A stretch of DNA of 61,305 nucleotides, the filler included. It is 12 parts of 12 records of this genome, joined end to end, with 100 filler letters (N's around TTAATTAATTAA, not from the genome) between each part and the next. Parts side by side here need not be neighbours in the genome. Positions count along the whole stretch, not along the records: positions 1 to 8,413 come from SRR15195285_8440; 11 more parts are not named here. One strand, given 5' to 3'. The notes under the pieces are model-generated. The model saw nothing but the letters and a program-made list of their open reading frames with translations, was not told where the DNA came from and made no database searches. Numbering within the stretch: the stretch's first letter is position 1; each line of letters starts with the position of its first letter. Position numbers and translations under genes: made by a program. Below, piece by piece: positions 1,326-49,821 of the stretch.

Positions 1326-2579
1326 AGATAATATCCGTCCGGATCAGCTGCCACGACGTCACGCGTGTGGGCTCAGAGACCACTTCAAATTGGCATTCAT
1401 TCTGGTAAACATGCGATCTATATATGAGAAAAGATTACGAGTCTATATTCACCAACTCCACGCGCTCTGACGTGCACAAGTAGAATAGGATCCTACCATT
1501 GGCGGGAGTAGGGGGATTGATTCTGACTGGAAAACCGTCCTCCAGTTTTGACTGATTCCACGAAGATCGAACCACAATCTGCAACAATTCAAGCCGGAGT
1601 CCCAGCCACAATGATTTCCCTGTCAACGCGAGCCCAAATCCACGACTCGTAGCGGTCGCCCCGGTGTCCACCCGATTCCTCAGTGATTTCTATCTAGCGT
1701 GTTCTTGTCGAAATGAGGGAATCCCGACGCAGAGAGACACCAGCTGAGATTCGCAGATTTTCCAGGGGAGATCTGAGATTTTTTGGAGATTCGCATCCGC
1801 CCCATACAATTGACTGGGCAGAGCTGGTCGCCCCGTTTCACATCCCCGTACGCAGGGTTGACGTCGGCTGGGAGCGGTGCTCACTTTGTGCTTGAGGGAG
1901 AGGAAGGGGTGGGGACGGAGCGGGTGGGGGGGGGGGGCTCATCGTTTTGTGGACCGGACGCTGGGAGAGAGGGGCGGACGGGGGTCCCATACTGTTGAGT
2001 GGGGACCTGGCTTGGCTCCCGGGGGAGGGATCAACCTGCTCTAGCTGCTCTGGGATCGAGCGGGTCTAGTGTGGTGGTGGTGGTGGTGTGGGGAGGGATT
2101 GGGCACTGCCTGCAAGGCAGAGTTGTTTTTGTTGGAGATTCGCCCTCCGTCCGGTAGGCGGACACGTGTTGATTTCGTGCTGCGCAGGCTGTGGATTTCT
2201 CAGCGGCGGCTGCTTGGAGTTTTGCGGCGTTGTTGCAGAGGGCGGGAGGCAGAGGGAAGGCATCACTGAGCCGCCGCTGCCTTGACGCATGCTGCGGGAT
2301 TGCACGGAGAGCGCTCGCTGCTGACAGCGCGGCGCTGGGCGGGGAGCAGGGAGCTCACGGCGACGCACGAGCCACGTAGGGACAGCTAGAGCTGTCGCCT
2401 GAGCTTGCGACGTCGGCCGCCTGCGTGCGTTCTCGCTCGTCGCTCGCTCGGTGTATCCCGCTTGGCGCGTGCCATGCGCGCACCCCGTTGTGGAGCACGG
2501 GCGGCACGCCGCCGCGCCCTGCGCGGCGCATGAACCGACCCCTGTGAGGCGGTGTCCCGGTGCAGGTGTTCGTCGAGAT

Positions 2580-5500
2580 ATGCTGGACAGATTCGTTGAC
2601 CCGCCGCACATGTCAGACACGGAGAGGGCGGGAGATGCCACTGAGCATCTGCCGACAACGTTGCCTGGTGAACACTGCGCCTCACGCGTGGTCCACAGGG
2701 ATGCAGCGTTGGTTGGGTCCGCCACATCGCACGAGATTAGCGCTGGTGACGTCGCGGATCCTGGTGCCTCGCTGGAGCTGCAAAGCCGCCTCCGCGGAGG
2801 CGCAGCAGACGCACAGGACAATGCGCAAAAAGACGGCGATGAAGAAGAGGACTACGTTAGCCCGGTCAGGCATCTGTGGAACCTGCTGTCGGGCGAGACG
2901 CAAGGCCCTGCCGGGCCTCTAGTGCCGATGACACTGTACATTATGTTTCTGCAGTCTGGATTTCTGTTGGCCCAAATTTCCACGACGTTCATGGTGATTT
3001 CGCAATGGGGTGTCGACGATATCCCGAAAATGATTCTGGGTGTCGCTCTGGCGGAATTGCTGAAGTTGCCACCACTACTTTACTGGGAGGGCAGGGTCTA
3101 CCAGCGACAAGTCGTGGTCATCGCCCTGCTAACAACCCAGGTTGTCTTTGTCATGTTGCAGTTGTTTTACGTTTCGTCGCTGGAGTGGGGCACTTGGTCA
3201 CTACTTGGCTTGTTTTCTCAGAAGTGGAAGCGGACCTCGGCGCTGGTAACGTACGTGCTGGTCGAAGTTATGGCAGCGTACAACCTTGACGCGTACTGGC
3301 TCCTGCTGGAAGAGGGTTGCAATATTCAGCAAGCCAAGCAGGTGTTTCGTGTCGTCAACAACGGGCAGGCTGCAGCGTTGTTTGTGGTCGGCCTGTTTGT
3401 CGGTTACGTACCGTGGTCCTTCTACATGACAGCTGCCTCGTTGATGTCGGTCACCACGGTCCTTCTACTCCCTTGCCAGGTTCTCATCCTGGTTGTCGCT
3501 CCAGCAAGCCAGAAGACGGCAGCGAACGCAGAGAAAGATCGGGAGTGGGCAAGACAGAGGGCGGCCAAGGAGAAAGAGCGCCGGAAAAAGGCCGCTGCCA
3601 AAGCGGCCTTGAAGGGGGGTCATGCTGAGCGAATGGCCGAGGACTTCGAGGAGGCAGATGCTGACCATGGCATCGTTGGGAGAATCAGAAACCTCTTGCT
3701 AGACCCGATGGTCCCATACATGGCCGTCACGTGTGCTCTGATGTTTAGTTTTGACGCTATCTACCAGTGGCAGTTCTTTACGTTGCTTGAGGTCAGCGTC
3801 CGCGCAACCAACCTGCAATGCACTACACATGGGTCGTATGGGGGTTACTTTCCACGAATTTGTTCGGAAGAATTTCATGCTTCCGCGCACCCAGAGCGGG
3901 ATTATCCTAAGGTGCAAACAGAAGGGGATGACACGTACCTGGGTCGGTATGGATATGACGGGAACAACGAGGAATGCGCACAGTTGGCTCTCTTTCCCAG
4001 CCAGCCCGGCATCGTCAACTACATGTTTCCTGAGATCCTGGATGAGCCGCAGGACGGAGACTGGGACGACAGGGACCCTTCAACCTGGAGCGGGGTGCCA
4101 CCATACAGACTTGCTGGGATAGACAGCACTGATGTATGTCAGTGGTGCGAGATTCGAGCGGCACCGAACTACGACACTGAACCATCTCTAATATGGTCCT
4201 CAGCCATCAATGGCGGACCGTTGTGCAACGGTGGCTCTGAAGAGCATCCAGATTGCAAGTACTTTGCATCAAAGCTGCCTTTCGAAGAAGAGGCCGCCCT
4301 CAATGACCCTCAAACAAAGGAGCGTATGCAGGCTGAAGGTCAGACGTATGACATAGATGTCGACTACACGACGTATCTCGGTCGTGTGTCATCAAAACCG
4401 AAAGGTATGCCAGACGGTCGCTGGGAGACGCTACCACAGATGGATATTGTAGTAGTCGGGTACGACAAGCCGTTCACAATGGCCGCGTTTGTGCTGGGTG
4501 ATACTGGGGTGGGCAACAACGTTACCATCACGAAGGAAGAATGCACGCAACTTTTAGGCACCATGGAGAAGAACACTTTGTGCTGTCAAGACACGGAGTG
4601 CGATTCTGGAGTGAGAAGGTACCCATCGGGAACGGATGGGGTGTCTTACTCGTACTGGCCTACAGTCAGATTCGACAAAGGCGACAAAGGAGCAACGATT
4701 GCCCCAAAACCAAAGCCAGGGTTCATTGAATCATTCGACTCCGACTGGGGCCTTCCCTACGAAGTACCCGCAGGCGTGTTTCAGAATGTTGACGGCAATG
4801 AGCCCAGAGAAATGACAACTAAACACTGTGCCTCAGGAAATCTGAACAAATTTCACCGCCCCGAGAGCGACAGGGTTTTCTTCGAGCGCGTAAACGCTGA
4901 CCTCGCTGTCTATCAGGGCATAATGAGAATGGTTGCTGCCATGATTCAACCTGGGAACTTGATAGTGAACGGATACATACTGGATCGATACGGCCTTTTC
5001 GGTGTTATAATGCTGCTGCCCGGATATTGCATTCTCTACAATATTTTCAATCAGTACTCTTCCGAGCTAGTAACCGTCGTCTTCACCAGGGCGTTATACA
5101 TAAGCACCTTCACAAACAATGCAGCATCTGCTCGTGTACTGTGGTATGCTGTCCCTGACAGCGTCAAAGCGACAGCATACCCCATCATTGCAGACATTTT
5201 GCCTGCGGGAGCTAGGGGTGTGGGCGCGTTGCTCACACTGTTCATGCAGGCGGCTGGGTTGACTGCAGGCAATTGGGTTTTGTCAGCGATCATGATTGTT
5301 GGCTCGATGACTTGGCTTAGCATTATTCACGTGGGATTGCGTGCTGGATACGCGACGCACTTGGCACAAAGCCTCAGCACGCGCGCAGCTGGTAGCGAAT
5401 ACATTCAGTTCGATGTGAAGGACAGCAAGGTTGTTGGGTACATTATGGACTTCCTGTTGCTCGGCGACTCGGGACAGAGACAGTTCATTCTGAATCTACT

Positions 5501-8413
5501 CAAGGGACATCCGCTGGACCCGTTCTATGATGTGCTAACTCATCTATACACGCTAAGGCCTGACGTTGAGACCACCGCAAAGCTGATTGAACTCGTTCGT
5601 TTGCATGAAACAGTGATTTCCGACGAGGATCTCATGCACGTCATTGGTGACAGTTACGAAGAACCGAAGGTTGTTGCGGCAGCACTGTTGGCTATTGGGG
5701 CCAGACGTTTGAAGGACGCACAGGGCAGCATCGAACAACTGTTGTTCAACAGCAAGCATGAAATTGTGCAGCTCAACGCCGCACTTGCAGTGCTCCATCT
5801 GAAACCAGATGAGAACGATCGGGCCAAGGTGCGCACGATTCTCATCAAGGAGCTCAGTTTGGAGAATTCCACGGAAGCCAGAGAGCTTTGCCTGCGGCAA
5901 CTGGCTGTAGCACTTCACCAGAAAGTCGTACTTCCGCCCCCAAGCAATCATGGTGGGACTGCGAAGTTTGACTTCTCCCGGCTGCCGAGGCCCAGGTCCC
6001 GGCAAATCAAGCGACTCGGCCTAGATTACGTTTTGCCCCTTGTCGCCCTGAGTCTCACAGACGTCGGTACCGCAGAAATCGCTGCTGAAGTGTTGGACTT
6101 GTTCGACAGCAACGAAGTGCAACACCTGTTTGCACAGTTGTTACGATCCGAGGAAGACTCGGAAGAGCGTGTGCGCATGTTTTGCAAGCAACCCGTGTTT
6201 GATTATCTTGCAGGCAACTCGAGGCGAACATACGACAACAGGATATGCGACACATTGCTCAAGCTAGACATACTGCAGAATCCAGATTCGCTCGGGAGCA
6301 AGGTGTCAACCATGGTATTCCGCGCAGTCATAGCGATTGCTCAAAATGCGCCACTCAAGCGCGCACAGAGCGATGTTGTGAGGGAGATGATTGAGAAAGA
6401 TTTGGAGCGGGCATACAGAAAGCTTTCAATGCTCTACTGGCTCGGGGCAGTGTCTTTCAGCGAAATGCTGCAAAGCTTCATCGAGCAGCAGCTGCAAATG
6501 ACCAAAGAGCGAATCCTCATGCTACTATCTTCCCTATGCCCGTACGATCCAGTGGACGAGTACGCGGATGTTGTACTAGCTGCTGACGATGAGGATGAGT
6601 ATGCAAACGCTATGGAGCTAATCGAAGCTGTAGCCCCGGCCGAGTTGTGGCTGAAGATCCAGCCAATCCTTGCGCCTGACGGTGACTTGACCTTGGCTGA
6701 CCGCGTGCGAGTCGGTAAACGACTGTATTCCGATATGGTAGAGTCTATAGACGATGCATTGGAAGACTACATGAAGTCGGATAGTGAGATTTGGCCAGCA
6801 TTTGTCCTGGATATGTGCATCAAGAATGAGCTATACGACTTCCTTGACTCGGTGACTTGGGTAGATATCCGAGACACTGTCTCTGAGATGTATGAAGAGA
6901 AAAGGCAGGGACGACTGACCGATGGTTCGCACCTGCTGCTAGAGATCATCAGTCGCGACAAACAGATGGCACGGAAAAAATTGCAAGTGCTCAAGGAGGA
7001 GATCGTTCAAGACGAACGGCGTAGAGAAATGAGAAATGACATGAAAAACATTGGCGCAAACAACACAGGGATGAAGCTCAAGCGTACTCTGCTGTCTCGG
7101 GTCACCACCGCGGCGTCCTTTGACGGCAGCCAAGATTTCTTGCAACCGCAGACCCGAAGTCAGAACAGTGTTGATCGAAATGGCCTGATCTCCGAAGATA
7201 TGTTAAATTCAACAGACTTAGCAGCAGACATGGCTGCAGCAGAGATGGAAGAGCAGGCTGAGCCACAGTCACAACTAGGATCAGTGAAATTGGGTCGCCT
7301 CGACAGAATGCAGATGTCGGTGACGGGTGCCAGCTGGAGTCAAAGTGAGCCGCTTGGCATCGACCAGCTCGCCAGCCAGAGTGGCTACGGCGACTCTATG
7401 TCACCAAGATCACAGAGACAAGCAGTCAACAAAGAGCAGCTGACACAAGAACAGAAGGCGACAGGCTTCTGGTGCTTCAAGCGCCAGTCTGACAAAGACG
7501 ACGAGGTGCTGACCGAAAAGGCTCGGATGGCTGAGCAGCTTGCAGAGCAGAAAGCCAAGGCCACGGCAAGGCAACAACGCTTGGAGTACGAAATACGTTT
7601 CCATCGCGATTTCGGGACAGTTGGTGCGAAAGAGTTGATGGCTCTCAGACCGGAGCCAGAGCGTCTCGGGGCAACCCTGGCAAAGCACGAGCTGGAAGAG
7701 GAACTTACTGTTCCAACCATCGTTGACGTAGATGTTGATATAATGGACAACTTTGTGGATGGTGGGGCGCAAGTTGACGAGGCTCGGGTGGAAAAGAAAG
7801 GCTGGAAGTCTGTGTTCCGAAAGGCCAAAGGCACCAAAGACAACTTTCTGGTGGTTGACGAAGACGATAAAGCTGCCACATCGAAGAAGAAACGGAAAAA
7901 GAAAGCCAAGGAACTAACAGGCGAGTCCATCCAAGGAGGACCAGCTGACGAACGCGAGGCGGAGCTGATTAGGCTTTTCCACCTCGGTTATCGAGAGCTC
8001 TTCTTCAAGTGCGACATCAAACATACGCGCGAGCTGGACGACGAGGAGCTCGCAGAGCTGCCACGAGTCCTCGCAATCCAGCTTGGCGAAGATGAAATCG
8101 AGGTGATCCGAAAGGAGATGGATGCAGACAAGCAAGGGTTCATTAGTTGGGGTAACTGGATGAATTGGTGGCGTGGCAACAGTGAAGGATATCAACTGTT
8201 ATTGGACAAGAAGGCAGAGGCACTTGAGCTAAAGCAAGCACGTGATCTGGAGCGTCGTGAGCTTGCACAGACCCAAGCAAAGCAAACAGCAGAAGACGTG
8301 CTCGACTACTGGACGCCTGGCACGAAAGCAAAGCTTATACAGCTTGCCGAACGGCGTGTCGAGGTTGCAGGCAAAGGCAGGGGTACAGTGCTGGAGGGTA
8401 GCAAGAAGGGTCT
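2580..8413 (+). CDS. HEAT-repeat NTT/TLC (Npt1/Npt2-like) MFS transporter with Cys-rich insertion and EF-hand pair; 3' truncated
   Basis: Intronless ORF of >1900 aa. Two blocks of hydrophobic helices (about 2930-3790 and 4900-5350) with motifs FLQSGFLL...WGVDDIP and YWLLLEEGCNIQQAKQVF (cf. FW..A...FN.RQ.KRLF). HEAT-like helices about 5450-6900. EF-hand-like loops DIKHTRELDDEE and DADKQGFISWGN. Start uncertain (ATG 2580 or 2610). Confidence 0.7.
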
Positions 8414-8513
8414 NNNNNNNNNNNNNNNNNNNNNNNNNNNNNNNNNNNNNNNNNNNNTTAATTAATTAANNNNNNNNNNNNNNNNNNNNNNNNNNNNNNN
8501 NNNNNNNNNNNNN
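8414..8513. other. Artificial contig spacer (44N-TTAATTAATTAA-44N); also at 12725-12824, 17088-17187, 23211-23310, 27564-27663, 31928-32027, 37810-37909, 43984-44083, 47199-47298, 51766-51865 and 55880-55979
   Basis: Identical 100-nt structure with a six-frame stop linker at all 11 positions; genes are truncated at several of them. Confidence 0.99.
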
Positions 8514-11500
8514 GCTGCTGCTGCTGCTGCTGCTGCTGCAGTTCCTGCTGCTGCTGCAGTTCTTGCTTCACTGAAGTAAACATTTCCGCTGCGGTCTGAC
8601 CTGAGGCTCTAGCTTTGTTGGATTCAACCTCGTCCATCTGCTGACCATCGGGCCGCATCTTATCCACAGCAGTTGTCATGAATCCATCGCTCCCAGAGTC
8701 ACCGGCCGCCCGCATCCATGCAGGCAATTTTCGGACCTTGCCTTTTTCTCGGTCGCGTACTTGGCTGGGATTCGCCCGCTCGACCGCCTTTTGAACCTGA
8801 ACTTTCATTGCCTTTGTCTCGGGGTCGTCGTTCGCGTGCCCACTGACTTTCAACAGCAGGGATCCGTCGGAACGCGTGCGGACAAATCTGCACGGAATCC
8901 AGCGGTTCGCAGATCGGCTGAAGTACTCGACCTTTGCACCTGTCGCGAACGCAGTCGGTATGTGTGCTGGAACCACACCGTCCATGTCATCAGCGTTATC
9001 GCCTCCACACTGCTGACCCCACTCAGCCTCCTTTGCTTCTTCTTTGACCGTTACAGTCGCAACTGCCTCCTTGACTTGAGCACGTTGCGTTGCTTCTTGT
9101 TCATGGGCCAGCCTTTGCTGCTCTGGCCTCGACTTGTCCATCGCAGCCACTTCTTGGTCATCTTTCAGTCGTGCGGCTGGATGCGCTTGTGCCTCAGCAT
9201 TTGCCTTTGCCTTTGCAGCTTCCACTTCCGCCGCGGTGACCAGGGGCAGTCCAAGCTCAGACCGAAGCTGTTCTGCTTCGTGCTTCTTCACAGCCAGCTC
9301 TTTCTGATGCATCTCGAGCAGCTCTGTTGTCTTTTGGATCTTTACGCGAGCTCGCTTCCCAACGCCGACTGCTTCCGTGGTCACAGAAAACCTTGGCAAA
9401 TGCTGCGTTGGACTACCAGTAGGCTCCTCCCGCGCTACTTCATAGCAAGCATGGCAGGCGTCAAGATCACAAAACGTGCAGCTATGTATTGGAGCTTTCT
9501 TCAGTTCCTGGCGGCAACCATCACAGAGAACGCCGCGGTTCAATTGATACTGATTGCGCACCGTGCTTTCCGACAAACCGTGCGGACATTTCAATCTCGA
9601 CAAATTTGTAATACACGCTGCAAAACGTGTTTGCCTCTCAGCGAACATATCTGCTTGCTCTCTTGCTGTTTTAATGTTCCCACCGACCTCCCAAATCATC
9701 TCCGTTTCTCTGCTCCTCAAAAACTCCTGCACCTTAGCATGATGGTGCGAGGCTTTCACAAATTTGCTGTCGACCAAGTCCTTGACTTCAGCTTCACGTA
9801 TCGTGATATTTTCCTCCAATTTTCGTAGTTTCCGTTCGTTTTCCCGCCGGCGTTCCTCTTTGGCCTTCTTTTCTTCTTGCTGTTTGAGCTGCATTTCCAC
9901 CTGTTCTCGAGCCTCCAGCTGAGTCTGAACAATGGTATACACAGAATGATGCTGCAGACCGCGCTGCTGCAGACCCATAGCAAGCTCATTCCATGCTTCA
10001 AGTTGGCTTGAGCGAGTCACTGGTGCTTCACGTAATCCTGATTGAATTCCTGACAGGATATCCTGGGCATTCGCTCGCACGAACTCGTCGCGTACTGTGG
10101 TCATGTCAATTACCAATCCAATCAAATCAGCGTTGATAATCTCGTCATCATCACCGCTCTCTAGCGGGTCATACATTTCTTTGTCTTCAAAATCGAAATG
10201 ATCGAGGTGTGCAGCGACAATGCGGCACACCGCGTGTAGTTTCTCTTCTCTGTTGGCCACCACCTGTGCTCGAACAAGCGTTGATGCAAACCCGATCGTC
10301 TTGCATGACACTTCTACATACGGCTGCTCATCCCACGGCTGCTGGACCTCTCTGCATAAGAGATCACGCAACATTTTGAAGACTGTACTGTCGGATTCCA
10401 AGTGGCTACCGACTGCCGCTGTCATGGCAGCGTTGGTATGCTCTGTCGATAGTTCGATGGCATAGTACCGGCTCACGAAAGAGGCCAGTAGCTCTGCGTC
10501 GCCGATCTTGGAGAGTCCCGAGAGTAGTTCTGACCACCCGGGGCCGTCACTACCATCCTTATTGTACACAATATCATCACTGGATACTGCCTGAGTCTTC
10601 CAATACGTTAGCACTTGTTGTGCCATCGCCATTCCTGTCGCAATATTTTGAGTAAGCGCGTCGCAGAGCGCTTGAATGTGAATGTCGGTGCAACGATCTC
10701 TGGCAACCCCCTGCTCTCGTTCTGCTTGAGTAAGGCGCCAGGCGATCTGGACTTCGCAGGCAGCTGCCCACGCCACGAGGAAGTGGCGTTCGTGCAGCTC
10801 GCGACCCTCGTACAAATCGCCGTACCGATCATTCACCACATCGTATTCACCTCCGTTGTAAGTTTCATACTTCGAGAGATCCAAATGTAGCTGATCGAGA
10901 CTCGCCACGCGACCAGTGGTTGGCACGGGGTTCATCTGGCCGTCGGCACCACGCTTGAAACGCCCTTCTGAGCTCTCACCATACAAATCTAAAATGTGTT
11001 CTTGGTCAAAGCACAACTCCAAATTTTCGAACACTGCAGGCATAGATCCACCTTCCACCGGCGCCCAATTTTTGTAGGTCACCATCTTATCCCAGCCGTC
11101 GTACGGATTCGAGCGCTCTTTCTCAAGCTCCACGGTACATCGGTAAAAGCTCAGTCGGCGTTCACATGGCAACAAAGCATTTGCGGCCTGAAGCGTAGCA
11201 TAGACATCTGCGTCTCGGCCTCCCAGGGCGTCCACTCCATGCTGTTGCAAAATTTTGAAATTCGGATGTTCAAGAGGAATGACGAGCATCTTTGAGGTCG
11301 CCGTCGTGCCCCATCGCTCGAGGAGCTTCGGGATCTCCGCAGAAGGAGGTGTCAGACCAGGTGTTGGGCCTTCACCAGCCCAGATCAGAGAGTACACCAG
11401 TGCTAGACGATAGCCCGACTGCACAGCTTCCAGCTTTTGCTCCGCACCATCGAACATTGCAGCGTAGTGGCAGCCAAACTCTGCCGGTGAAGCTTCACTG

Positions 11501-12417
11501 CCAGAGGACTCTCGGACCAGATACTTCCTCGGAAGCCACTTGCCGTTCTCGACCTGGATCCAACTTTCAGTCTCACGCTGCGCATAGTGAACAGAATCAT
11601 TCCTTGCCGCGACTGGCTTTTGATCCTCATCCTCACCGCGATCGTCATAATCTGGACTGTCGCGATAAAATAAGTCGTGAGCAATGAAATGTGGCACACT
11701 GACTCGAAAGACGGCATTGCTTCGCGTGCCAAAGTCAAACTGTTTCGTACGCTTGCCGTGGCTAACCGTGAGCGATCCACCACTAGCAGCGGCTGGGAGA
11801 ACTACTACCATAGTGCCGAACGTGGGTAAACCGCGGTGGGTCTCGGGCAGTCGTTCGTTCACTCCGAAGCTGGAGCCTCCCGGTTCATTCAGCACAGCCT
11901 TGCGCAACTCGAAGCTAACGTCCCCGGCGGCGCATCCCAGCGTCGAGGCGGTCCTTCGAATCAGTGCCTTGAGTTTGACGTTCCACTGCGGGTTGCGGAA
12001 ACTCAGCTGGCGCGGCTGCAGCTCCCAGGAGCACCCCGTTGAGTCCGCGGGGGAGCGTTCTGCCACGCGTTTGAGCGTGGCAGCGTCGTGCTCGCGGATC
12101 GGCAGGCTCACGGGCCCGACTCCCAAAACGTGCAGACCTGGCAGACCCGGCATTTCCACCGCCGCCCCGCCGTCCGCGAACTCGCCGACGCGTGCGCTAC
12201 TTGCAAGTGCTTTGACCAAGAGCTCACGCACGTCATCGGCCTCGTCGTCCGGAGCTCCGGTGTAGCTGTCTGAGCGGCGCAGTGGCTGAGTGGAGCCGTA
12301 AGAGCTCTTGACCCCGCCAGTTAGCGGTGCCCCTGAGCCTACCGTGCGCGTGCCAAGTTGCCTCCGGGGCTTGCGGGCTCCCGTGCTCTTGCGCGCGGTT
12401 TGCTTTGTGCGCGCCAT
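8514..12417 (-). CDS. Histone H3-tail / degenerate 2OG-Fe(II) oxygenase fusion with SH3-like, ZZ-like and Tudor-like modules; 3' truncated in poly-Q
   Basis: Begins MARTKQTARKSTG...APLTGGVK with no histone fold. Followed by PGL.V.GVG.V.LP, SWEL.P.Q.SF.NP.W, FGTMVVVLP..ASGG.L.V.H and V.SGYRLALVY.L motifs of the fungal/oomycete 2OG-FeII_Oxy_3-type family. Cys cluster CDGC..HSCTFCDLDACHACY; GAKVEYFSRSANRWIPC. Confidence 0.8.
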
Positions 12418-12549: not shown

Positions 12550-12824
12550 GTACCCGGTACCCGCTCGAGTACCGTTGGATGGAGGGTAGACGCTTTTGTT
12601 GAGTCTACTATCATAGTACCCTCGTGGTTGGTTGGATCTTGGATGTCCGCCTTTCCCCAGCGCACCAAACCGGGTTGTGGATTCTTTCTCACGAACACGG
12701 GTTAGAAATGGAATTCATTGTTGTNNNNNNNNNNNNNNNNNNNNNNNNNNNNNNNNNNNNNNNNNNNNTTAATTAATTAANNNNNNNNNNNNNNNNNNNN
12801 NNNNNNNNNNNNNNNNNNNNNNNN

Positions 12825-27664: not shown

Positions 27665-30600
27665 CCCCCCCCGCCGGTTCGCCCTTCGGTCGTCATGGAG
27701 GGCGCGAATAACTGCGAAGACGATCTTACACACAAGCTACTGGATATTGTCAAACAGAATGAGAGCCTCCGTAGACACCAGGAGAACGGCGCACCGGAGC
27801 ACGTCGTGGACCAGATCGCTCAGCTGTTGCAGTACCATATCAATTGCTATATCAACAACGAGATACCAGGGCAACCGCAGAATGTGCACAAAAGTGGTAG
27901 GCCGATTAAATCGATCGCGCAGCGACTGAAAGGCAAAGCCGGTCGGATCAGATGTAACTTGATGGGCAAGCGTGTGGATTTCTCCGCGCGCACAGTCATA
28001 GGCGGCGATCCAAACTTGTTCCTGGATCAAGTTGGGGTGCCGCGGTCAATTTGTAAGACCTTGACTTACCCTGAAATTGTTACTCGATTCAACAGGGACA
28101 GGCTGAAAAAGCTTGTAGAGAACGGCCCAGACGAGCATCCTGGCGCCAGGTTCGTGTACCGCGAAGATGGACAGCGGATTGATTTGCGTTGGATCAAAGA
28201 TAGGACCGAAGTTGCGCTGACTTTGGGCAGCAAGGTCGAGCGTCACGTACAAGACAACGATTTGGTCCTGTTCAACCGACAGCCGTCGCTTCACAAGGCT
28301 TCAATCATGGGCCACAGAGTAAAGATCCTGCCCTGGTCTACCTTCCGGCTTAATCTGTCGGCCACCCCACCGTACAATGCTGATTTCGACGGGGACGAAA
28401 TGAATCTGCATGTGCCTCAGAGCTGGGAGTGCAAAGCAGAAATTCAGGAACTGATGATGATCACAAGGCAAATTGTGTCACCGCAAGCCAATGGTCCTGT
28501 TCTTGGAATCGTGCAGGACAGCTGTCTAGCGTGCAAGCGAATGACGGAGCGGAATACTTTTTTGGATAAGGCCACAACCTTTCAGCTTCTCATGCGCATC
28601 CTCGATTGGGATGGTGTTGTACCTATACCAGCAATTCTCAAGGGCGCTAATGGTCGCGGGCCTCTGTGGACGGGCAAGCAGATTTTCCAAATCCTGATCC
28701 CAGACGTGTGCTCACTGAGAAGGACCAACATCCAGCACAACGATAAAGACAAAGCAGACGTGAAGGCGGGAATTATGACTCCGAGTGACTCGAAGTGTTT
28801 AATCCAGGATGGTGAGTTGCTGTCGGGGGTTGCCGACAAGAAGATTATGGGTGCCAAAAACGGAGGATTGATCCACATCATCTGGCACGAGCTGGGCCCT
28901 GAGGGTGCCAACAAGTTCATTACTGGAGCGCAGCGATTGGTGGACAACTGGTTAGTGAACGTCGGCTTCAGTATCGGAATTGGAGATACTGTTGCTGACG
29001 ATGCCACCAAAAGTGACATCGAGGAAACCATCAAAGAATCCAAGGGCAAAGTGACAAAGTTCGTGAAACAAGCCCAGCAGAATGAGCTCCAGGTGTTGCC
29101 CGGTATGACACTTCAGGGCACATTTGAGTCAAAGGTCAACGAGGCCTTGAATAGTTGCATCACGCAAGCAGGCAAAGCCGCACAGAACAGCCTTGACTAC
29201 TTGAACAACGTGCGGGCGATGGTAATGGCTGGATCCAAAGGGTCTTCTCTGAACATCTCTCAGATGATGGCTTGCGTTGGCCAGCAGAACGTCGAAGGCA
29301 AGAGAATCAAGTTCTCGTTCCGCGACAGGACTCTGCCCCATTTCAAAAAGTTCAACCTTGGTCCAGAATCTCGTGGATTTGTAGGCAACTCGTACCTGCG
29401 CGGCCTGACACCGCAAGAATTCTTCTTCCATTCCATGGGTGGTCGCGAAGGGATCATTGACACGGCTTGCAAGACTGCAGAGACCGGCTACATTCAACGA
29501 CGCCTGGTGAAGTCCATGGAGGACATCTGCATTCGCTATGACGGCACAGTTCGCAACCAGCTTGACCACGTGATCCAGTTCCTGTACGGAGAGGACGGTA
29601 TGGACGGCTCGCGCGTTGAGGACCAGAAGGTGGAGTCTGTAATTTGCAGCGACAAGGTATTCGAGCAGAAGTTCAAGCATGATCTCGAGAACGTAGATTA
29701 CGGTGTTAACTTCATGGACCCGGCAGTAATTGAACAGGTCCGCAACAGTGAGACAGAGCTGCAGGCAATAGCTCAAGAGTTTCAACAGATAAAGGATGAC
29801 CGCGAGGACATTCGCCGGTACATGCACGTGCTGCCGATGCCAAAAGACACTGCGCTCTCGGAAGAAGGAACGGATGTGGGCGTGTTCCCGGTTAATCTAG
29901 CACGGCTGGTTGCCAACGCGAAGAAAGTGATGGCCAAAAGCATCGTAGGCTCGGAGGTGATCTCAGATTTGTTTCCGTCCACTATCATCACCGAGCTTGC
30001 CGAGCTGGTGAATAGGCTGAAGCGGTTCCTCATCCATGGCGATGATCCATTGGCAGTCGAGGCACAGGACAACGCAATTCAATTCTTCTCTCGGCACCTC
30101 CGCTCGTATCTTTCTTCGAAGCGCGTCCTGTTTGTACACCGTCTCAACCTGGACGGCTTCAAGTTTTTGATCGGAGAGATCGAGGATCGTTTTTATCACG
30201 CTGTTGTAAATCCTGGAGAAATGGTGGGGTCCATTTGCGCGCAATCGATTGGGGAGCCGGCGACACAGATGACTCTCAACACATTCCACCACGCTGGTAA
30301 CTCAGCCAAAAATGTCACGCTTGGTGTGCCGCGACTCAAGGAGATCATCAACGTGGCCAAAACGCCGAAGACACCATCGATGACAGTATTCTTGGACAAA
30401 GAGTACGCAGGTGATCAGAGCCAGGCCCGAAAGATCCAACAGAAACTCGAGTATACAATTCTCGCGGACGTCGTAGACTCCATGACAATCCACTACGACC
30501 CTGTCATGCTCAAATCAGTCGTAGAGGAGGACCAGAATATCATTGACGATTACTACGGGCTTGAGGACGATGATGAGGAGGCGCTGCAGGCGCGGCTATC

Positions 30601-31927
30601 TCCGTGGCTGCTTCGTTTAGAGCTGAACTACGTGGCCATTCGCGAGAAGAGCCTGGAGGCTGAGCAGATCGTTACGCGCCTCACGAGCGATCAGGAAGGA
30701 GGGCTGAACCTGGACGAGCATTTGGAATGCATTGCCAGCCCAGCCAACCATTTGCATCCTGTCGTGCGCATTCGGCCAAAGCGCGTCGATGGTGACGATG
30801 AAGACAAAGATCAGGACATGCAAAAGTATCTGAAGAGCATCGGGGAGGTACTGTTGACAAAACTAGAGCTTGGCGGTATTGAAGGAATTCAAAAAGCCAC
30901 CATGGCAGACGAAAAACGCTTCGAGGAAGACGAGAACGGCGCACTGGACGACCGCGACAAGTTCCCGGAGGAATGGACGCTGATTACAGAGGGCAGCTCA
31001 TTGCTCTCTGTCATGAACGTCGAAGGTGTCGACTTTCGTCGCTGCAAGACAAACCATATCACAGAAATCTATGAGGTACTGGGAATCGAAGCTGCGCGCT
31101 GTGCACTGTTGCGCGAGCTTCGCCACGTTATCTCATTTGACAGCACTTCTGTCAACTATCGTCACCTGGCACTGATTTCAGACGTCATGACATACCGTGG
31201 TAACTTCATGGCAATTACACGCCATGGCATCAATCGCTCTGATGCCGGGTGCTTGATGCGGTGTTCCTTTGAGGAGACTGTAGAGATTTTGATGGACGCC
31301 AGCTGCTTTTCCACCACGGACCACCTGCGGGGAGTCAGTGAAAACGTAATGCTTGGGCAGCTTTGCCCGCTCGGGACGGGTACCTTCGATCTAGTACTGA
31401 ACGAGGATATGCTGAAGGACGCCATCCCCAACCCTGACGACGTGATCGACGAAGACGAGGATGAAGCCTTCGGGGAAGACAATGGGGCGAGTCCTTTTAG
31501 TGGTGCGCCTTTCTTTCACTGCCAACCGTTGTTTGAGTGTGTTGCACTGTTGCTGCGAGATTGCTGACTCCGCCTGTTGACGTTTCAGCAATGACACCGG
31601 CACAAGACTCGCCGTTCGCGACTGGTGCCTCGCCGTTCCCCGAATTCTCGCCAGTGGCAGACAATGCTGGCTTCTCGCCGGTTGCTGGTGGCTTCTCGCC
31701 AGTCGCCGATGATGCCATAGACCTAGGAGGCGGTGGCGGAGCGGATGGGTACTCACCTACGTCCCCCACCTACTCGTGAGTTCGCCCATCAGAAAATGGC
31801 TGCAGAAGCCGAGTGTAGCGCGACACGCGACATGCATGCTCTTACCGTCGGTTTGACACGTGTGCGTGCACTGCCGGTTGGCGAGCGCAGGCCGACGAGC
31901 CCGTCGTACTCACCGACAAGCCCGTCG
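27665..31927 (+). CDS. RPB1: RNA polymerase II largest subunit, truncated at both ends
   Basis: NLMGKRVDFSAR, NRQPSLH, PYNADFDGDEMN, bridge helix and trigger loop GEPATQMTLNTFH. Introns 31503-31588 and 31776-31890 lead into YSPTSPT/YSPTSPS heptads. Confidence 0.97.
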
Positions 31928-47412: not shown

Positions 47413-49821
47413 ATGGAGCCGTCGGTCATCGTCATCGGCATCACGGGCCCGACGCGTTGTGGCAAGGGGCGCGTGTCCAAGGCGCTCGCCGAGACGCTCG
47501 GGAACGTCGCCGTCGTCGGGCAGGACGCGCACTGGTTCCGACCCTGGCCAGACGCTGCAACCGGCGAGGCGAGCGCTGAGGAGCCCGAGTGCACCGACCA
47601 CGCGAAGTTCGCGGAGAAGATTCAGGAAGCGACAGCGGCGGCAGCAGCATCGGGTGCGCGTTTCGTTATCGCGGAGGGATACCAGCTGCTGCATGACGCC
47701 TCTGTCCGGGCGCTGCTCGGGCCAATTCACTGGCTCCAAATCAGCCGAGACGAGTGCATTCGCCGCCGCTCGGCTCCAAGAGACGAGCTTCGTAACCCGC
47801 ACCCAATCGACGCCACCAAGATGAAACGTGTCGTCTGGCCTGCCTACCTAAGATACTGCACTGCGAGCGTGGATCCGCTTGGAGCACGTGTGCGGCGACA
47901 CGTGGGGCCGTCCACCGAGGATGAGGTTGCGGCCACCGTCAGTCAGATCTTGGCGTCTTTGCCTGTGGAAGAGGGGATACCAGGCGGCGCGGAAGAAGAG
48001 AGACCAGGTGGTGCGATGGCACCAGCCGGTGACTGGACGACGGAGAGGCCGCTGTATATTACGAATGTGGGCCATCCGTCATTCCTTGACTGCACCTCTG
48101 CCCAAGGTCCCGGCAAGTACGATGTCACTATGTGGGGTGACGGCGTCGATGTTGGGGAGTACCCTGACTACATACAATGGATTCTCAAGCCGGTGGAAGG
48201 TGAAGTAGACACATTTTTCATCCTCAACAAAGCTCACAACAAGTTTCTGGACTCGCATGGTCGTGGAGTGTGGCTGTGGGGCGATGGTGTCGACATAGGC
48301 CAGGACCCGGACGGGATCAAGTGGAGGCGCGAAGTGGCTGGCGCAGGAGACACCTTCTACCTCATTCACAAAAAGAGTAACAAATTTCTCGACAGCCCTG
48401 GCGGCCCACAAGTAAGCTTGTGGGGCGACGGTGTCAACACAGGAGAGATCCCACAGAACCTTCAATGGCAACTCAAGAGAGCGGGTGCAGAGTGGGTCAC
48501 ACTCGGCGGGCTCGCCAAGCACGGTGGCAAAGTTGGCAAGGTGACTGAGTTCTGCCATGGTGATGTGACACTCTGGCACGCGGACGGCGAGAGGAGTGGA
48601 TTTATCAACCCCATGACACTAAGCCGGCCGAGCGAGGCAGAAGCCACGTCATTCGAAGCAGCGCCAAAAATGCTGTTTCATGGCACGTCGCTGGAGAACG
48701 CTGTCAGAATCCAAGACGGTGGGTTTGATCTCGCTCGCTGTGGAACTGGCTACAACCTGGTAAATATCATTGGCGGCTCAAAGCTCGGTCGAGGAGTTTA
48801 CATGGGTGAAGAGATGGGAGGTAATTTTGGGGCAGGACCTTGGTGTTACGCAACGGGTGGAGAAATCTATCCTTACCTGAATGTTAAAGAAAACGATTTC
48901 GGTGGTTGTGTGCTGAAGCTGAGCGTCGACACGGGTCGAGTGTATCAAGTCACAGGCCGCACAGACCCTCTACTAACACGTTGGGCTGAAAGTGGCTACG
49001 ACAGTGTCTATAAACCCGCTGCTGTGGCTATTCATGACACCTCGGGTGATCATGGTAACCACCACCAGCACATGCCCGCGGAATACTGCATCGCAGACCC
49101 TGCGCGCATTAAAGTGGTAGGCTACTCTATCACCGATGAAGCACGGAAGGCAGGATGGAAGGTAACGGATAGACTGATGCCTCCGGGAGCTTCTGAGAAT
49201 TCTCGTGGTGCAGAGTGTCGTGGCGATACGCATCCAGCGTACAGTATGTGCTTCAACCCTGACGCGCGCGTGCGTATGGCGGATGGCACAGCAAAGCACG
49301 CCAAAGCCGTGCAGGTAGGCGACCAGCTAGCGACACCGACTGGGGAATCTACAACCGTGCTGGCTTGCACGATTCAGGCTAGCTGCCGGCGTTGGCTGGT
49401 CCAGATCGAAGATATGTATATCTCGACGATGCATCGGATCCAGAATCCGCGTGGGGAATGGATCGAACCCATCTTCTACCCAGGAGCGACAATGACCACG
49501 CACGACTGCGCGTTGCACAACTTCGTCGTCGAGGGCAGCGTCCCGATCATAGTATGTGATGTGGTCGCCTCAACCATTGGGACGTACTGCGTAGGGTCGC
49601 ACGATTTTCAGTGGCCCACGCATGAGCTCTGGGGTGGGCACAACATTGTGAATCTCTTTGCGCAGCGAGATGACTGGCCGAACATCCGAATCGGGGTGAG
49701 CAACACCTTCCTAGCAGTGATGAAGAATCCTGAGTTTGCGCGGAAGTATTTGGATCAGTGCGACGGCACAAAACGCAGCACACGAATGTTGCTGCGAGAG
49801 TATGGATGGATAGGCGATTGA
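47413..49821 (+). CDS. Nicotinamide-riboside-kinase-like + ricin-B lectin + Gig2/PARP-like ADP-ribosyltransferase + Hint/Vint multidomain protein (802 aa)
   Basis: NRK-like: IGITGPTRCGKG, VGQD, VIAEGYQL, EC..RR, VVWPAY. Three beta-trefoil-like repeats (F.I.NK...FLD...V.LWGDG....QW). ART: LFHGTS, LGRGVY, GYDSV, EYCIADP.RI. Hint: CFNPDARVRMADG...VQVGD, ISTMH, LHNFVV, TIG. Confidence 0.8.
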   Translation: MEPSVIVIGITGPTRCGKGRVSKALAETLGNVAVVGQDAHWFRPWPDAATGEASAEEPECTDHAKFAEKIQEATAAAAASGARFVIAEGYQLLHDASVRALLGPIHWLQISRDECIRRRSAPRDELRNPHPIDATKMKRVVWPAYLRYCTASVDPLGARVRRHVGPSTEDEVAATVSQILASLPVEEGIPGGAEEERPGGAMAPAGDWTTERPLYITNVGHPSFLDCTSAQGPGKYDVTMWGDGVDVGEYPDYIQWILKPVEGEVDTFFILNKAHNKFLDSHGRGVWLWGDGVDIGQDPDGIKWRREVAGAGDTFYLIHKKSNKFLDSPGGPQVSLWGDGVNTGEIPQNLQWQLKRAGAEWVTLGGLAKHGGKVGKVTEFCHGDVTLWHADGERSGFINPMTLSRPSEAEATSFEAAPKMLFHGTSLENAVRIQDGGFDLARCGTGYNLVNIIGGSKLGRGVYMGEEMGGNFGAGPWCYATGGEIYPYLNVKENDFGGCVLKLSVDTGRVYQVTGRTDPLLTRWAESGYDSVYKPAAVAIHDTSGDHGNHHQHMPAEYCIADPARIKVVGYSITDEARKAGWKVTDRLMPPGASENSRGAECRGDTHPAYSMCFNPDARVRMADGTAKHAKAVQVGDQLATPTGESTTVLACTIQASCRRWLVQIEDMYISTMHRIQNPRGEWIEPIFYPGATMTTHDCALHNFVVEGSVPIIVCDVVASTIGTYCVGSHDFQWPTHELWGGHNIVNLFAQRDDWPNIRIGVSNTFLAVMKNPEFARKYLDQCDGTKRSTRMLLREYGWIGD

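Follow-up and report, generated by a model that had tools for sequence, protein, structure and literature searches.

A divergent picozoan relative of bacterial NTT-HEAT proteins

The window analyzed here, a stretch of 61,305 nucleotides composed of about 12 contigs of 4-6 kb that were artificially joined, carries on its first contig (1-8413) a gene for a large membrane protein, termed P0001 below. We favor, as the probable reading of this gene, a highly divergent picozoan NTT-HEAT protein, in which a 12-helix major facilitator superfamily (MFS) domain of the nucleotide transporter (NTT)/TLC type is followed by a cytosolic HEAT-type α-solenoid and in which the sensor module would have been swapped. 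The gene lies in a single open frame on the plus strand (2451-8413). The open reading frame (ORF) proper, from the first ATG at 2580 to the scaffold gap (2580..8413, +), corresponds to residues 44-1988, counted from the opening of the frame at 2451, and its 3′ end is missing. The gene is nuclear and belongs to a picozoan; the Picozoa are small heterotrophic marine protists and are uncultured, plastid-lacking relatives of red algae. The protein family itself is known and functionally blank, and it is the variant in an uncultured eukaryote that is new. Specifically, the new features are the putative exchange of the sensor for EF-hands, a ~370-residue ectodomain with 12 cysteines in the loop between transmembrane helices (TM) 7 and 8, and the loss of conserved charged residues.

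Colinearity with bacterial NTT-HEAT proteins

A profile of residues 400-1520, built from P0001 and four close relatives, matched 189 proteins at E ≤ 1e-3 and 94 at E ≤ 1e-10 among 1.84 billion representatives. Besides fragments of the same family, the matches were proteins of ~1000-1100 residues, whose own residues ~250-580 pair with profile positions ~405-745. When nine of the matched proteins were scanned with Pfam, seven carried both cNMP_binding and HEAT_2, and five of these seven also passed TLC, with scores of 24-48 bits (cut-off, 21); the remaining two, which were without any family, are picozoan relatives. Comparison by hhalign of the picozoan alignment with 21 bacterial proteins of the NTT-HEAT-cNBD type (cNBD, cyclic nucleotide-binding domain) gave a probability of 100% and an E value of 7.3e-42 over 643 columns. 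Residues 816-1516 were paired with bacterial columns 252-904, and the alignment ran unbroken through TM8-TM12 and the entire solenoid. The N-terminal half was aligned separately because the insertion between TM7 and TM8 broke the full-length hmmalign alignment of P0001 to the bacterial hidden Markov model (HMM). Residues 141-339 matched bacterial columns 7-180 with a probability of 95.8% and an E value of 8.3e-9, and a local hmmsearch of this N-terminal membrane half gave an E value of 1.8e-9. A combined family profile of picozoan, bacterial and dinoflagellate rows, in which the bacterial rows dominate, matched CpNTT1 with an E value of 1e-42 and AtNTT1 with an E value of 6.3e-37. The nearest clusters in the ESM Atlas were bacterial TLC+HEAT_2 proteins (score of 0.95). 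These sequence comparisons identify the membrane domain and solenoid of P0001 as colinear homologs of bacterial TLC+HEAT_2+cNMP_binding proteins.

The membrane domain contains 12 TM helices, on which hydropathy and an AlphaFold2 (AF2) model agree. The model covers residues 140-1010, was computed from a 57-sequence alignment and has a mean predicted local distance difference test (pLDDT) score of 65.8, with values >90 in the helices; it is a prediction, and its input alignment contained TLC proteins. Six modeled helices lie at residues ~157-349, a seventh at ~421-454 and five at ~807-978. TM1-TM6, the N-terminal half of the NTT-type MFS domain (2871..3521, +; residues 141-357), have pLDDT values of ~90 and harbor a Q-A-K motif with K296. 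The central loop between TM6 and TM7 (3522..3686, +; residues 358-412) is rich in Lys, Arg and Glu and presumably cytosolic. TM7 (3687..3785, +; ~residues 413-445) carries P-Y and Y-Q-W-Q motifs, aligned with P-Y-L and D-Y-Q-F-K in the bacterial proteins. TM8-TM12, the C-terminal half (4887..5366, +; ~residues 813-972), fall within the hhalign match of probability 100 and are modeled at pLDDT >90.

Structural alignment of the model with VIA-align placed the solved NTTs first. Two AtNTT1 entries, 9j3m and 9j3l, were matched with Z scores of 34.6 and 34.4, and the CpNTT1 entry 9j3n with a Z score of 29.6, compared to 27.4 and 27.3 for the best non-NTT MFS proteins, URAT1 and LacY. For the NTT entries, ~418 residues were aligned with root mean square deviations of 3.1-4.0 (3.1-3.2 for AtNTT1). 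The predicted membrane fold is closest to that of the solved ATP/ADP translocators. AtNTT1 and Chlamydia pneumoniae NTT1 (9j3l, 9j3m, 9j3n) also share the A-K motif of TM5 with P0001. Unlike the picozoan protein, these canonical NTTs have no solenoid, EF-hands or ectodomain, and identity to them is 12-13%. Thus, the NTT/TLC-like membrane domain and the kinship with a bacterial-type NTT-HEAT fusion family, both claimed in a preliminary description of the window, are borne out by the profile searches, the two hhalign matches and VIA-align.

The HEAT-type α-solenoid (5367..6998, +; ~residues 973-1516) spans ~540 residues. It directly follows the 12-helix domain, and its colinearity with bacterial NTT-HEAT-cNBD proteins extends over their entire HEAT domain. 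The solenoid model is all-helical, with a mean pLDDT of 87.1 and a predicted template modeling score of 0.82. Its best structural matches were alphaRep and the PBS-HEAT phycocyanin lyase CpcE/F, both with a Z score of 13.8, a value common among helical repeats that supports the fold class only. The solenoid part of the family profile matched alphaRep proteins with an E value of 1.4e-53. Pfam HEAT_2 gave no match on P0001 (E ≤ 1), and its matches on P0002 (E of 0.071) and P0003 (E of 0.12) were below the cut-off. The HEAT repeats of the preliminary description are supported by homology to HEAT_2-positive bacterial proteins and by the predicted solenoid fold.

Bacterial NTT-HEAT-cNBD proteins (PF03219 + PF13646 + PF00027; PMC5381601) likewise consist of a 12-TM NTT domain and then a HEAT solenoid of ~500 residues, in colinear order. 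The picozoan protein differs from them in that it lacks the cNBD and has a linker and EF-hands instead, and in its Cys-rich TM7-TM8 insertion of ~370 residues, its K/R-rich central loop and its lost charges. It is also longer (≥1945 residues, compared to ~1050), and identity between the two is ~15-23%.

The Cys-rich insertion and the EF-hand tail

The Cys-rich insertion in the TM7-TM8 loop (3786..4886, +; ~residues 446-812), with its ~370 residues and 12 Cys, is a feature that the preliminary description overlooked. All 12 cysteines are kept in each of the three ectodomain-bearing sequences. By standard MFS topology the domain is inferred to face the outside or a lumen, and the twelve conserved cysteines are compatible with an oxidizing exterior or lumen. 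AF2 modeled the insertion at pLDDT <50, the ESM Atlas gave no usable match for it, and in the search with the profile of residues 400-1520 this region matched only fragments of the same family; such failed fold searches are not evidence of a new fold. Because TM7 carries the P-Y and Y-Q motifs of the family, the Cys-rich domain is an insertion into a 12-helix domain that is otherwise complete and colinear. It is absent from the aligned bacterial proteins and from a second picozoan paralog, represented by P0029 (Picozoa COSAG06) and P0031 (Picozoa SAG22), in which the TM7-TM8 loop has ~25 residues. The K/R-rich central loop is common to both paralogs, as is the loss of charged residues. The absence of the ectodomain from the second paralog marks it as a later insertion in one paralog.

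Following the solenoid are a charged linker (6999..7991, +; ~residues 1517-1847), which is poorly conserved save for a few short blocks, and an EF-hand pair with non-canonical loops (7992..8174, +; residues 1848-1908). The long linker and the EF-hand pair, placed previously at about 7995-8175, are both present, and EF-hands are lacking in the bacterial forms. EF-hand_7 (PF13499) was matched in all four picozoan homologs scanned, above the cut-off in two of them (P0003 and P0004); in the ortholog P0003 the homologous EF pair reached 36.2 bits in total, in two stretches. Among solved structures, the best match to the picozoan EF pair was to the EF-hands of SCaMC-1 (4zcu, 4n5x), the mitochondrial ATP-Mg/Pi carrier, with an E value of 0.0019 for the picozoan profile. 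SCaMC-1 is alike in design, as it combines a nucleotide carrier with an EF-hand regulatory domain. Unlike the picozoan protein, it has the mitochondrial carrier fold and its EF-hands are N-terminal and canonical; the two do not share common descent.

The part of the gene present in the window ends with a charged helical segment and then a Gly/Lys-rich start (G-K-G-R-G-T-V; 8175..8413, +) that is cut by the gap. Its final residues had been likened to the beginning of a cyclic nucleotide monophosphate (cNMP)-binding domain cut by the contig end. The break, however, is an artificial N/linker joint at 8414 and not a contig end, and the last 22 residues had been over-read: in the orthologs P0003, P0004 and P0005 the sequence continues past the break as a short Gly/Lys-rich, beta-rich segment and then as more EF-hands, with no cNMP domain. 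Pfam found cNMP_binding in none of four picozoan homologs at E ≤ 0.5, and hhalign of the picozoan tail profile with the bacterial cNBD profile gave a probability of 0.04% and an E value of 0.89. An HMM of the bacterial cNBD columns recovered four of four dinoflagellate controls (E values of 8e-30 to 2e-20), gave E ≥ 0.23 for four picozoan sequences and listed no match for two more. The ortholog continuation and these negative tests, with all four controls recovered, rule out the start of a cNMP-binding domain at this position. Judged from the sequences at hand, the picozoan lineage lacks the cNMP-binding domain and has the long charged linker and EF-hand modules in its place. In P0004, an ortholog of 2974 residues, the Gly/Lys-rich segment (G-x-G-x-G-T-V ... 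F-D-G) is repeated at least three times at its residues ~1700-1900 amid EF-hands and looks like a small beta-rich repeat.

Host, relatives and phylogeny

Close relatives of P0001 are few, with four at E ≤ 1e-3 among 6550 candidates. Their sources are the EukProt entry for Picozoa sp. COSAG02, marine metagenomes and a cluster with a COSAG06 piece; Picozoa COSAG06 and Picozoa SAG22 also yielded two relatives at greater distance. Other contigs of the window encode RNA polymerase II RPB1 and proteins with SAM, RING and Vint domains. The RPB1 fragment (27695-31567, +), which serves as the taxonomic anchor, contains Pfam domains 1-7 and is intron-less over 1290 codons. Metagenome proteins match it with identities of 96%, 88% and 78% and a COSAG05 protein with 81%, compared to ≤53% for every other named eukaryote among the 120 matches listed. 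GC content, GC content at third codon positions (GC3; 0.58-0.61) and codon-use correlation (0.69-0.78) of three parts of the transporter ORF fall within the range of the other ORFs (0.58-0.89).

The stretch is present in at least 19 public runs from 15 studies, with 6 RNA libraries among the runs listed; all of the listed runs are seawater or marine metagenomes save one coded organism. Contigs from 4 of the 23 listed runs were mapped in 30 bins. Two DNA runs covered 30 and 29 of the 30 bins, and two metatranscriptomic runs covered 19 and 28 at ≥95% identity. The mapped contigs were mostly ≥99% identical, showed no joints inside the ORF and, in all four mapped runs, included contigs running over the end of the stretch. 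In RNA run X14 one contig spans 2167-3017, over the N-terminal extension of the protein. In RNA run X12 cover begins at ~2811, with 563-2810 empty, and some other bins were empty in single runs; by the mapping rule, empty bins are not evidence of absence. Taken together, the picozoan relatives in three single-cell assemblies, the RPB1 anchor, the matching codon use and the DNA and RNA libraries place the gene in a eukaryote, as had been proposed. Therefore, the gene is real and eukaryotic, and it is apparently intron-less.

Outside Picozoa, the nearest proteins belong to Fidelibacterota/Marinimicrobia, to an FCB-group bacterium, to Poribacteria and to Planctomycetota. Searching GTDB genomes with the bacterial alignment yielded mostly Marinimicrobia, a result biased by the query. 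NTT-HEAT-cNBD forms of 1550-1800 residues were found in the dinoflagellates Polykrikos kofoidii and Gymnodinium smaydae and on transcript-sized contigs (P0122, P0134-P0137, P0140, P0156 and P0169); P0122, the single dinoflagellate-length form scanned with Pfam, carries HEAT_2 and cNMP_binding. Like the oomycete proteins, these are eukaryotic copies of the same family that are longer than the bacterial ones, and unlike the picozoan protein they have kept the cNBD (four of four).

In the available text of Major et al. (2017; PMC5381601), the NTT-HEAT and NTT-HEAT-cNBD fusions are a monophyletic group that is common among bacteria, Chlamydia and cyanobacteria included, and present also in oomycetes, and that of Gruber and Haferkamp (2019; PMC6995639) gives oomycetes as the only eukaryotes with fused genes. 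The view that eukaryotic NTTs are all stand-alone, on which the preliminary description relied, is contradicted by the oomycete fusions in the available text of PMC5381601 and by the dinoflagellate copies found here. In the accessible portions of the NTT-HEAT literature we found neither the picozoan EF-hand/ectodomain variant nor the dinoflagellate copies; supplementary lists may name more taxa.

Phylogenetic trees were computed with FastTree on 78 rows and with a mixture model on 33, 29 and 27 rows. Of the 78 rows, 55 were drawn from the ids P0049-P0177 (850-1250 residues), 8 were dinoflagellate-length forms, 6 were picozoan sequences and 9 came from the 80 loci; P0053, P0005 (solenoid and tail only) and shorter fragments were omitted, and P0004 was cut to its first 1000 residues. 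All trees are unrooted and contain fusion-family members only, with no canonical NTT or oomycete sequence. The six picozoan rows group in one clade (support of 100), whose stem measures 2.1-2.4 changes per site, and this clade divides into two subfamilies, with and without the ectodomain. Because both subfamilies have a COSAG06 member or fragment, they are paralogs. Picozoa and dinoflagellates were joined with a support of 91 by FastTree (78 rows) and with a Shimodaira-Hasegawa-like approximate likelihood ratio test (SH-aLRT) value of 92 under LG+C20 with posterior mean site frequencies (PMSF; 33 rows), neither value being starred and both trees carrying a long-branch warning. In the tree without dinoflagellates, Picozoa sit at an unresolved node among three bacterial clades, and in the tree without Picozoa, dinoflagellates fall in a polytomy with two of those bacterial clades. 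Shared eukaryotic ancestry of the picozoan and dinoflagellate genes is allowed by these trees. The trees decide for neither the horizontal nor the ancient origin that had been suggested for the gene, given the long stem and the open position relative to the three bacterial clades.

Possible roles, and the rest of the window

By standard MFS topology, the termini of P0001, the K/R-rich central loop, the solenoid and the EF-hands would be cytosolic. The solenoid would then couple a second-messenger sensor to the transport cycle, the sensor being the cNMP domain in bacteria, dinoflagellates and oomycetes, which Picozoa would have exchanged for a Ca2+-type module. The simplest reading is a regulated transporter with an exchanged sensor, whose substrate would by descent be a nucleotide.

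Several observations weigh against this reading. First, Pfam gave no TLC, MFS or HEAT match on P0001 at E ≤ 1 and no TLC match on P0002-P0005 at E ≤ 0.5. A phmmer search of P0001 against the PDB found no solved NTT, and a picozoan-only profile matched EF-hand proteins alone in the PDB, with no transporter or solenoid. Given the Pfam and phmmer negatives, family membership rests on the profile and fold evidence; the search with TLC, HEAT and cNMP_binding profiles proposed previously gave nothing on P0001 itself at E ≤ 1, and the link to TLC came through homology to proteins that pass it. Second, EF-hand_7 scored below its cut-off on P0001 (E of 2e-4; 22.1 bits against 30). A canonical EF loop has 12 residues, with acidic or polar residues at positions 1, 3 and 5, Gly at 6 and Glu or Asp at 12. 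In P0001, positions 3 and 6 of loop 1 are occupied by Lys and Arg, and position 12 of loop 2 by Asn; as read from the sequence, the EF pair inside the window is without canonical Ca2+ ligands. Canonical-looking EF loops occur only in the orthologs, ~110-140 residues past the break. As to the Ca2+ control proposed previously, the EF-hand pair is real as a fold, but its loops in the window are degenerate. Ca2+ control of the picozoan NTT-HEAT protein is plausible. Third, contigs from RNA libraries may hold DNA and are not proof of transcription. Fourth, the available text of Major et al. (2017; PMC5381601) lists no NTT-HEAT protein with an assigned function.

The charged residues of the transport domain, whose loss the preliminary description overlooked, bear on the substrate. 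Of the 43 positions between TM8 and the solenoid junction at which ≥80% of the 21 bacterial proteins agree, P0001 keeps 26. D319 and K347, the sole conserved charged residues of that membrane half (TM8-TM12), are among those lost. Every picozoan row has Tyr or Met in place of K347 (Y910 in P0001), and none of the picozoan rows that cover D319 retains it, the residue being either missing or replaced. Bacterial K347 aligns, by eye, with a Lys of the solved CpNTT1, so that this Lys of canonical NTTs is Tyr in the picozoan protein. In the other half and in TM7, bacterial R135, R139 and D236 correspond to Q293, Q297 and Q439 of P0001. The bacterial R-Q-A-K-R motif is thereby Q-Q-A-K-Q, in which K296, common to canonical NTTs, is kept, and Gln stands in place of the Asp in the D-Y-Q-F-K motif of TM7. 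These three changes to Gln weaken the designation as a nucleotide transporter. In contrast, the dinoflagellate forms retain K347, D319 and R139. Structural residues common to P0001 and the bacterial family are K296, W898, P911, W955, Y967 and R978. The residue losses, together with the very long branch, make the substrate uncertain, and a changed substrate or a sensing (transceptor) role may be about as likely as retained nucleotide transport.

The same changes would also fit a pseudo-transporter or transceptor, in which the NTT-derived domain serves as a membrane anchor or ligand sensor without carrying nucleotides, the ectodomain binds outside and the HEAT/EF-hand tail signals inside. We consider this unlikely, yet the most serious competitor. 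It would account for the lost charges (K347 to Y910, D319 missing, and R135, R139 and D236 to Gln), for the stem branch of 2.1-2.4 changes per site, for the constraint on the ectodomain evident in its conserved cysteines (12 of 12 in three of three sequences) and for the very long EF-hand-rich tails, which reach 2974 residues in P0004. However, the transport fold has kept its 12 helices and many of its Gly, Pro and Trp positions; K296 is retained, as are 26 of the 43 positions conserved in the C-terminal half. Moreover, the ectodomain-less paralog shows the same residue changes, which are thus not tied to the ectodomain, and no ligand or partner is known.

A more specific version, to which we give somewhat less weight still, is a Ca2+-coupled surface receptor or transceptor. 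Here the ectodomain would sense a ligand from outside, for instance dissolved nucleotides, colloids or material from prey, and the HEAT/EF-hand part would relay the signal to or from cytosolic Ca2+, while the remodeled MFS core would no longer need nucleotide-binding charges. If true, this would be an MFS-derived receptor class in which a cNMP second-messenger module was exchanged for Ca2+.

It is very improbable that P0001 is an ordinary MFS transporter of another family that was fused by chance or misassembly to a helical/EF-hand protein. The silence of Pfam for TLC fits such an origin, as does Foldseek, which by itself gave E values of only 0.02-0.1 and listed many MFS families. The weak Foldseek result is explained by the insertion, which splits the membrane domain, and AtNTT1 still had the best target-normalized TM-score (0.64). 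No other MFS family fits the membrane domain better, the VIA-align scores of AtNTT1 and CpNTT1 lying ~7 and ~2 Z units above that of the next MFS protein. The hhalign alignment crosses the junction between TM12 and the solenoid unbroken (643 columns; E of 7.3e-42). The architecture also recurs in independent assemblies, in P0002, in P0003 and, from TM9 on, in P0004, and overlapping contigs from metagenomes together span the ORF, among them X1 records 4-8 (3693-7985).

Bacterial contamination of a single-cell or metagenome assembly, suggested by the marine bacteria that are the nearest non-picozoan relatives, is scarcely credible, since P0001 is only ~15-23% identical to bacterial proteins and contains EF-hands, lysine runs and a Cys-rich ectodomain. 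Its relatives also come from three separate Picozoa assemblies, and its codon use and GC3 are as in RPB1 and the other eukaryotic ORFs.

If the favored reading of a regulated NTT-HEAT transporter with an exchanged sensor is correct, the exchange of the sensor with retention of the transporter-solenoid unit would argue for the solenoid as a general adaptor between sensor and transport, a hypothesis applicable to the whole family. The eukaryotic range of the fusion is extended from oomycetes, the range given in the available text of PMC5381601 and PMC6995639, to Picozoa and dinoflagellates, which bears on its uptake or retention by eukaryotes. Membrane proteins that are specific to Picozoa and present in many seawater libraries are also among the few handles on how these organisms interact with their surroundings.

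The contigs of the window are connected by 11 linkers of the form N44-TTAATTAATTAA-N44. The joint that follows the transporter gene (8414..8513, unstranded) consists of N44, a six-frame stop linker and N44. It is at this linker, and not at a true contig end, that the open frame stops and the 3′ part of the gene is lost. Ten further joints lie at 12725, 17088, 23211, 27564, 31928, 37810, 43984, 47199, 51766 and 55880. Because the contigs were joined, neighbors beyond 8413 do not represent synteny, gene order across the joints is meaningless, and genes at the joints are truncated. A tblastn search of the window with the longer orthologs found no missing 3′ part or paralog on its other contigs.

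At the other end of the gene, the N-terminal extension (2580..2870, +; residues 44-140) is acidic and of low complexity. It is without counterpart in the bacterial proteins, and the ATG at 2580 is only a putative start. Upstream on the same contig, the 3′ end of another ORF (2-607, +), with 201 codons, open at its 5′ end and rich in Gly, Ala and Thr, is covered by contigs from DNA and RNA libraries. Between it and the transporter gene are ~2 kb without a long ORF, in which small indel variants between runs occur at 690-1963, with two small joints at 1745-1800. On another contig, an ORF on the minus strand (8515-12417, −) has 1301 codons and matches no Pfam family; at its 3′ end, right after the joint, is a GCT/GCA trinucleotide run (8514-8560). 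Farther along the window, an ORF of 802 codons (47413-49821, +) encodes a Vint (Hint-type) domain at its residues 613-747, with an E value of 7.6e-8.

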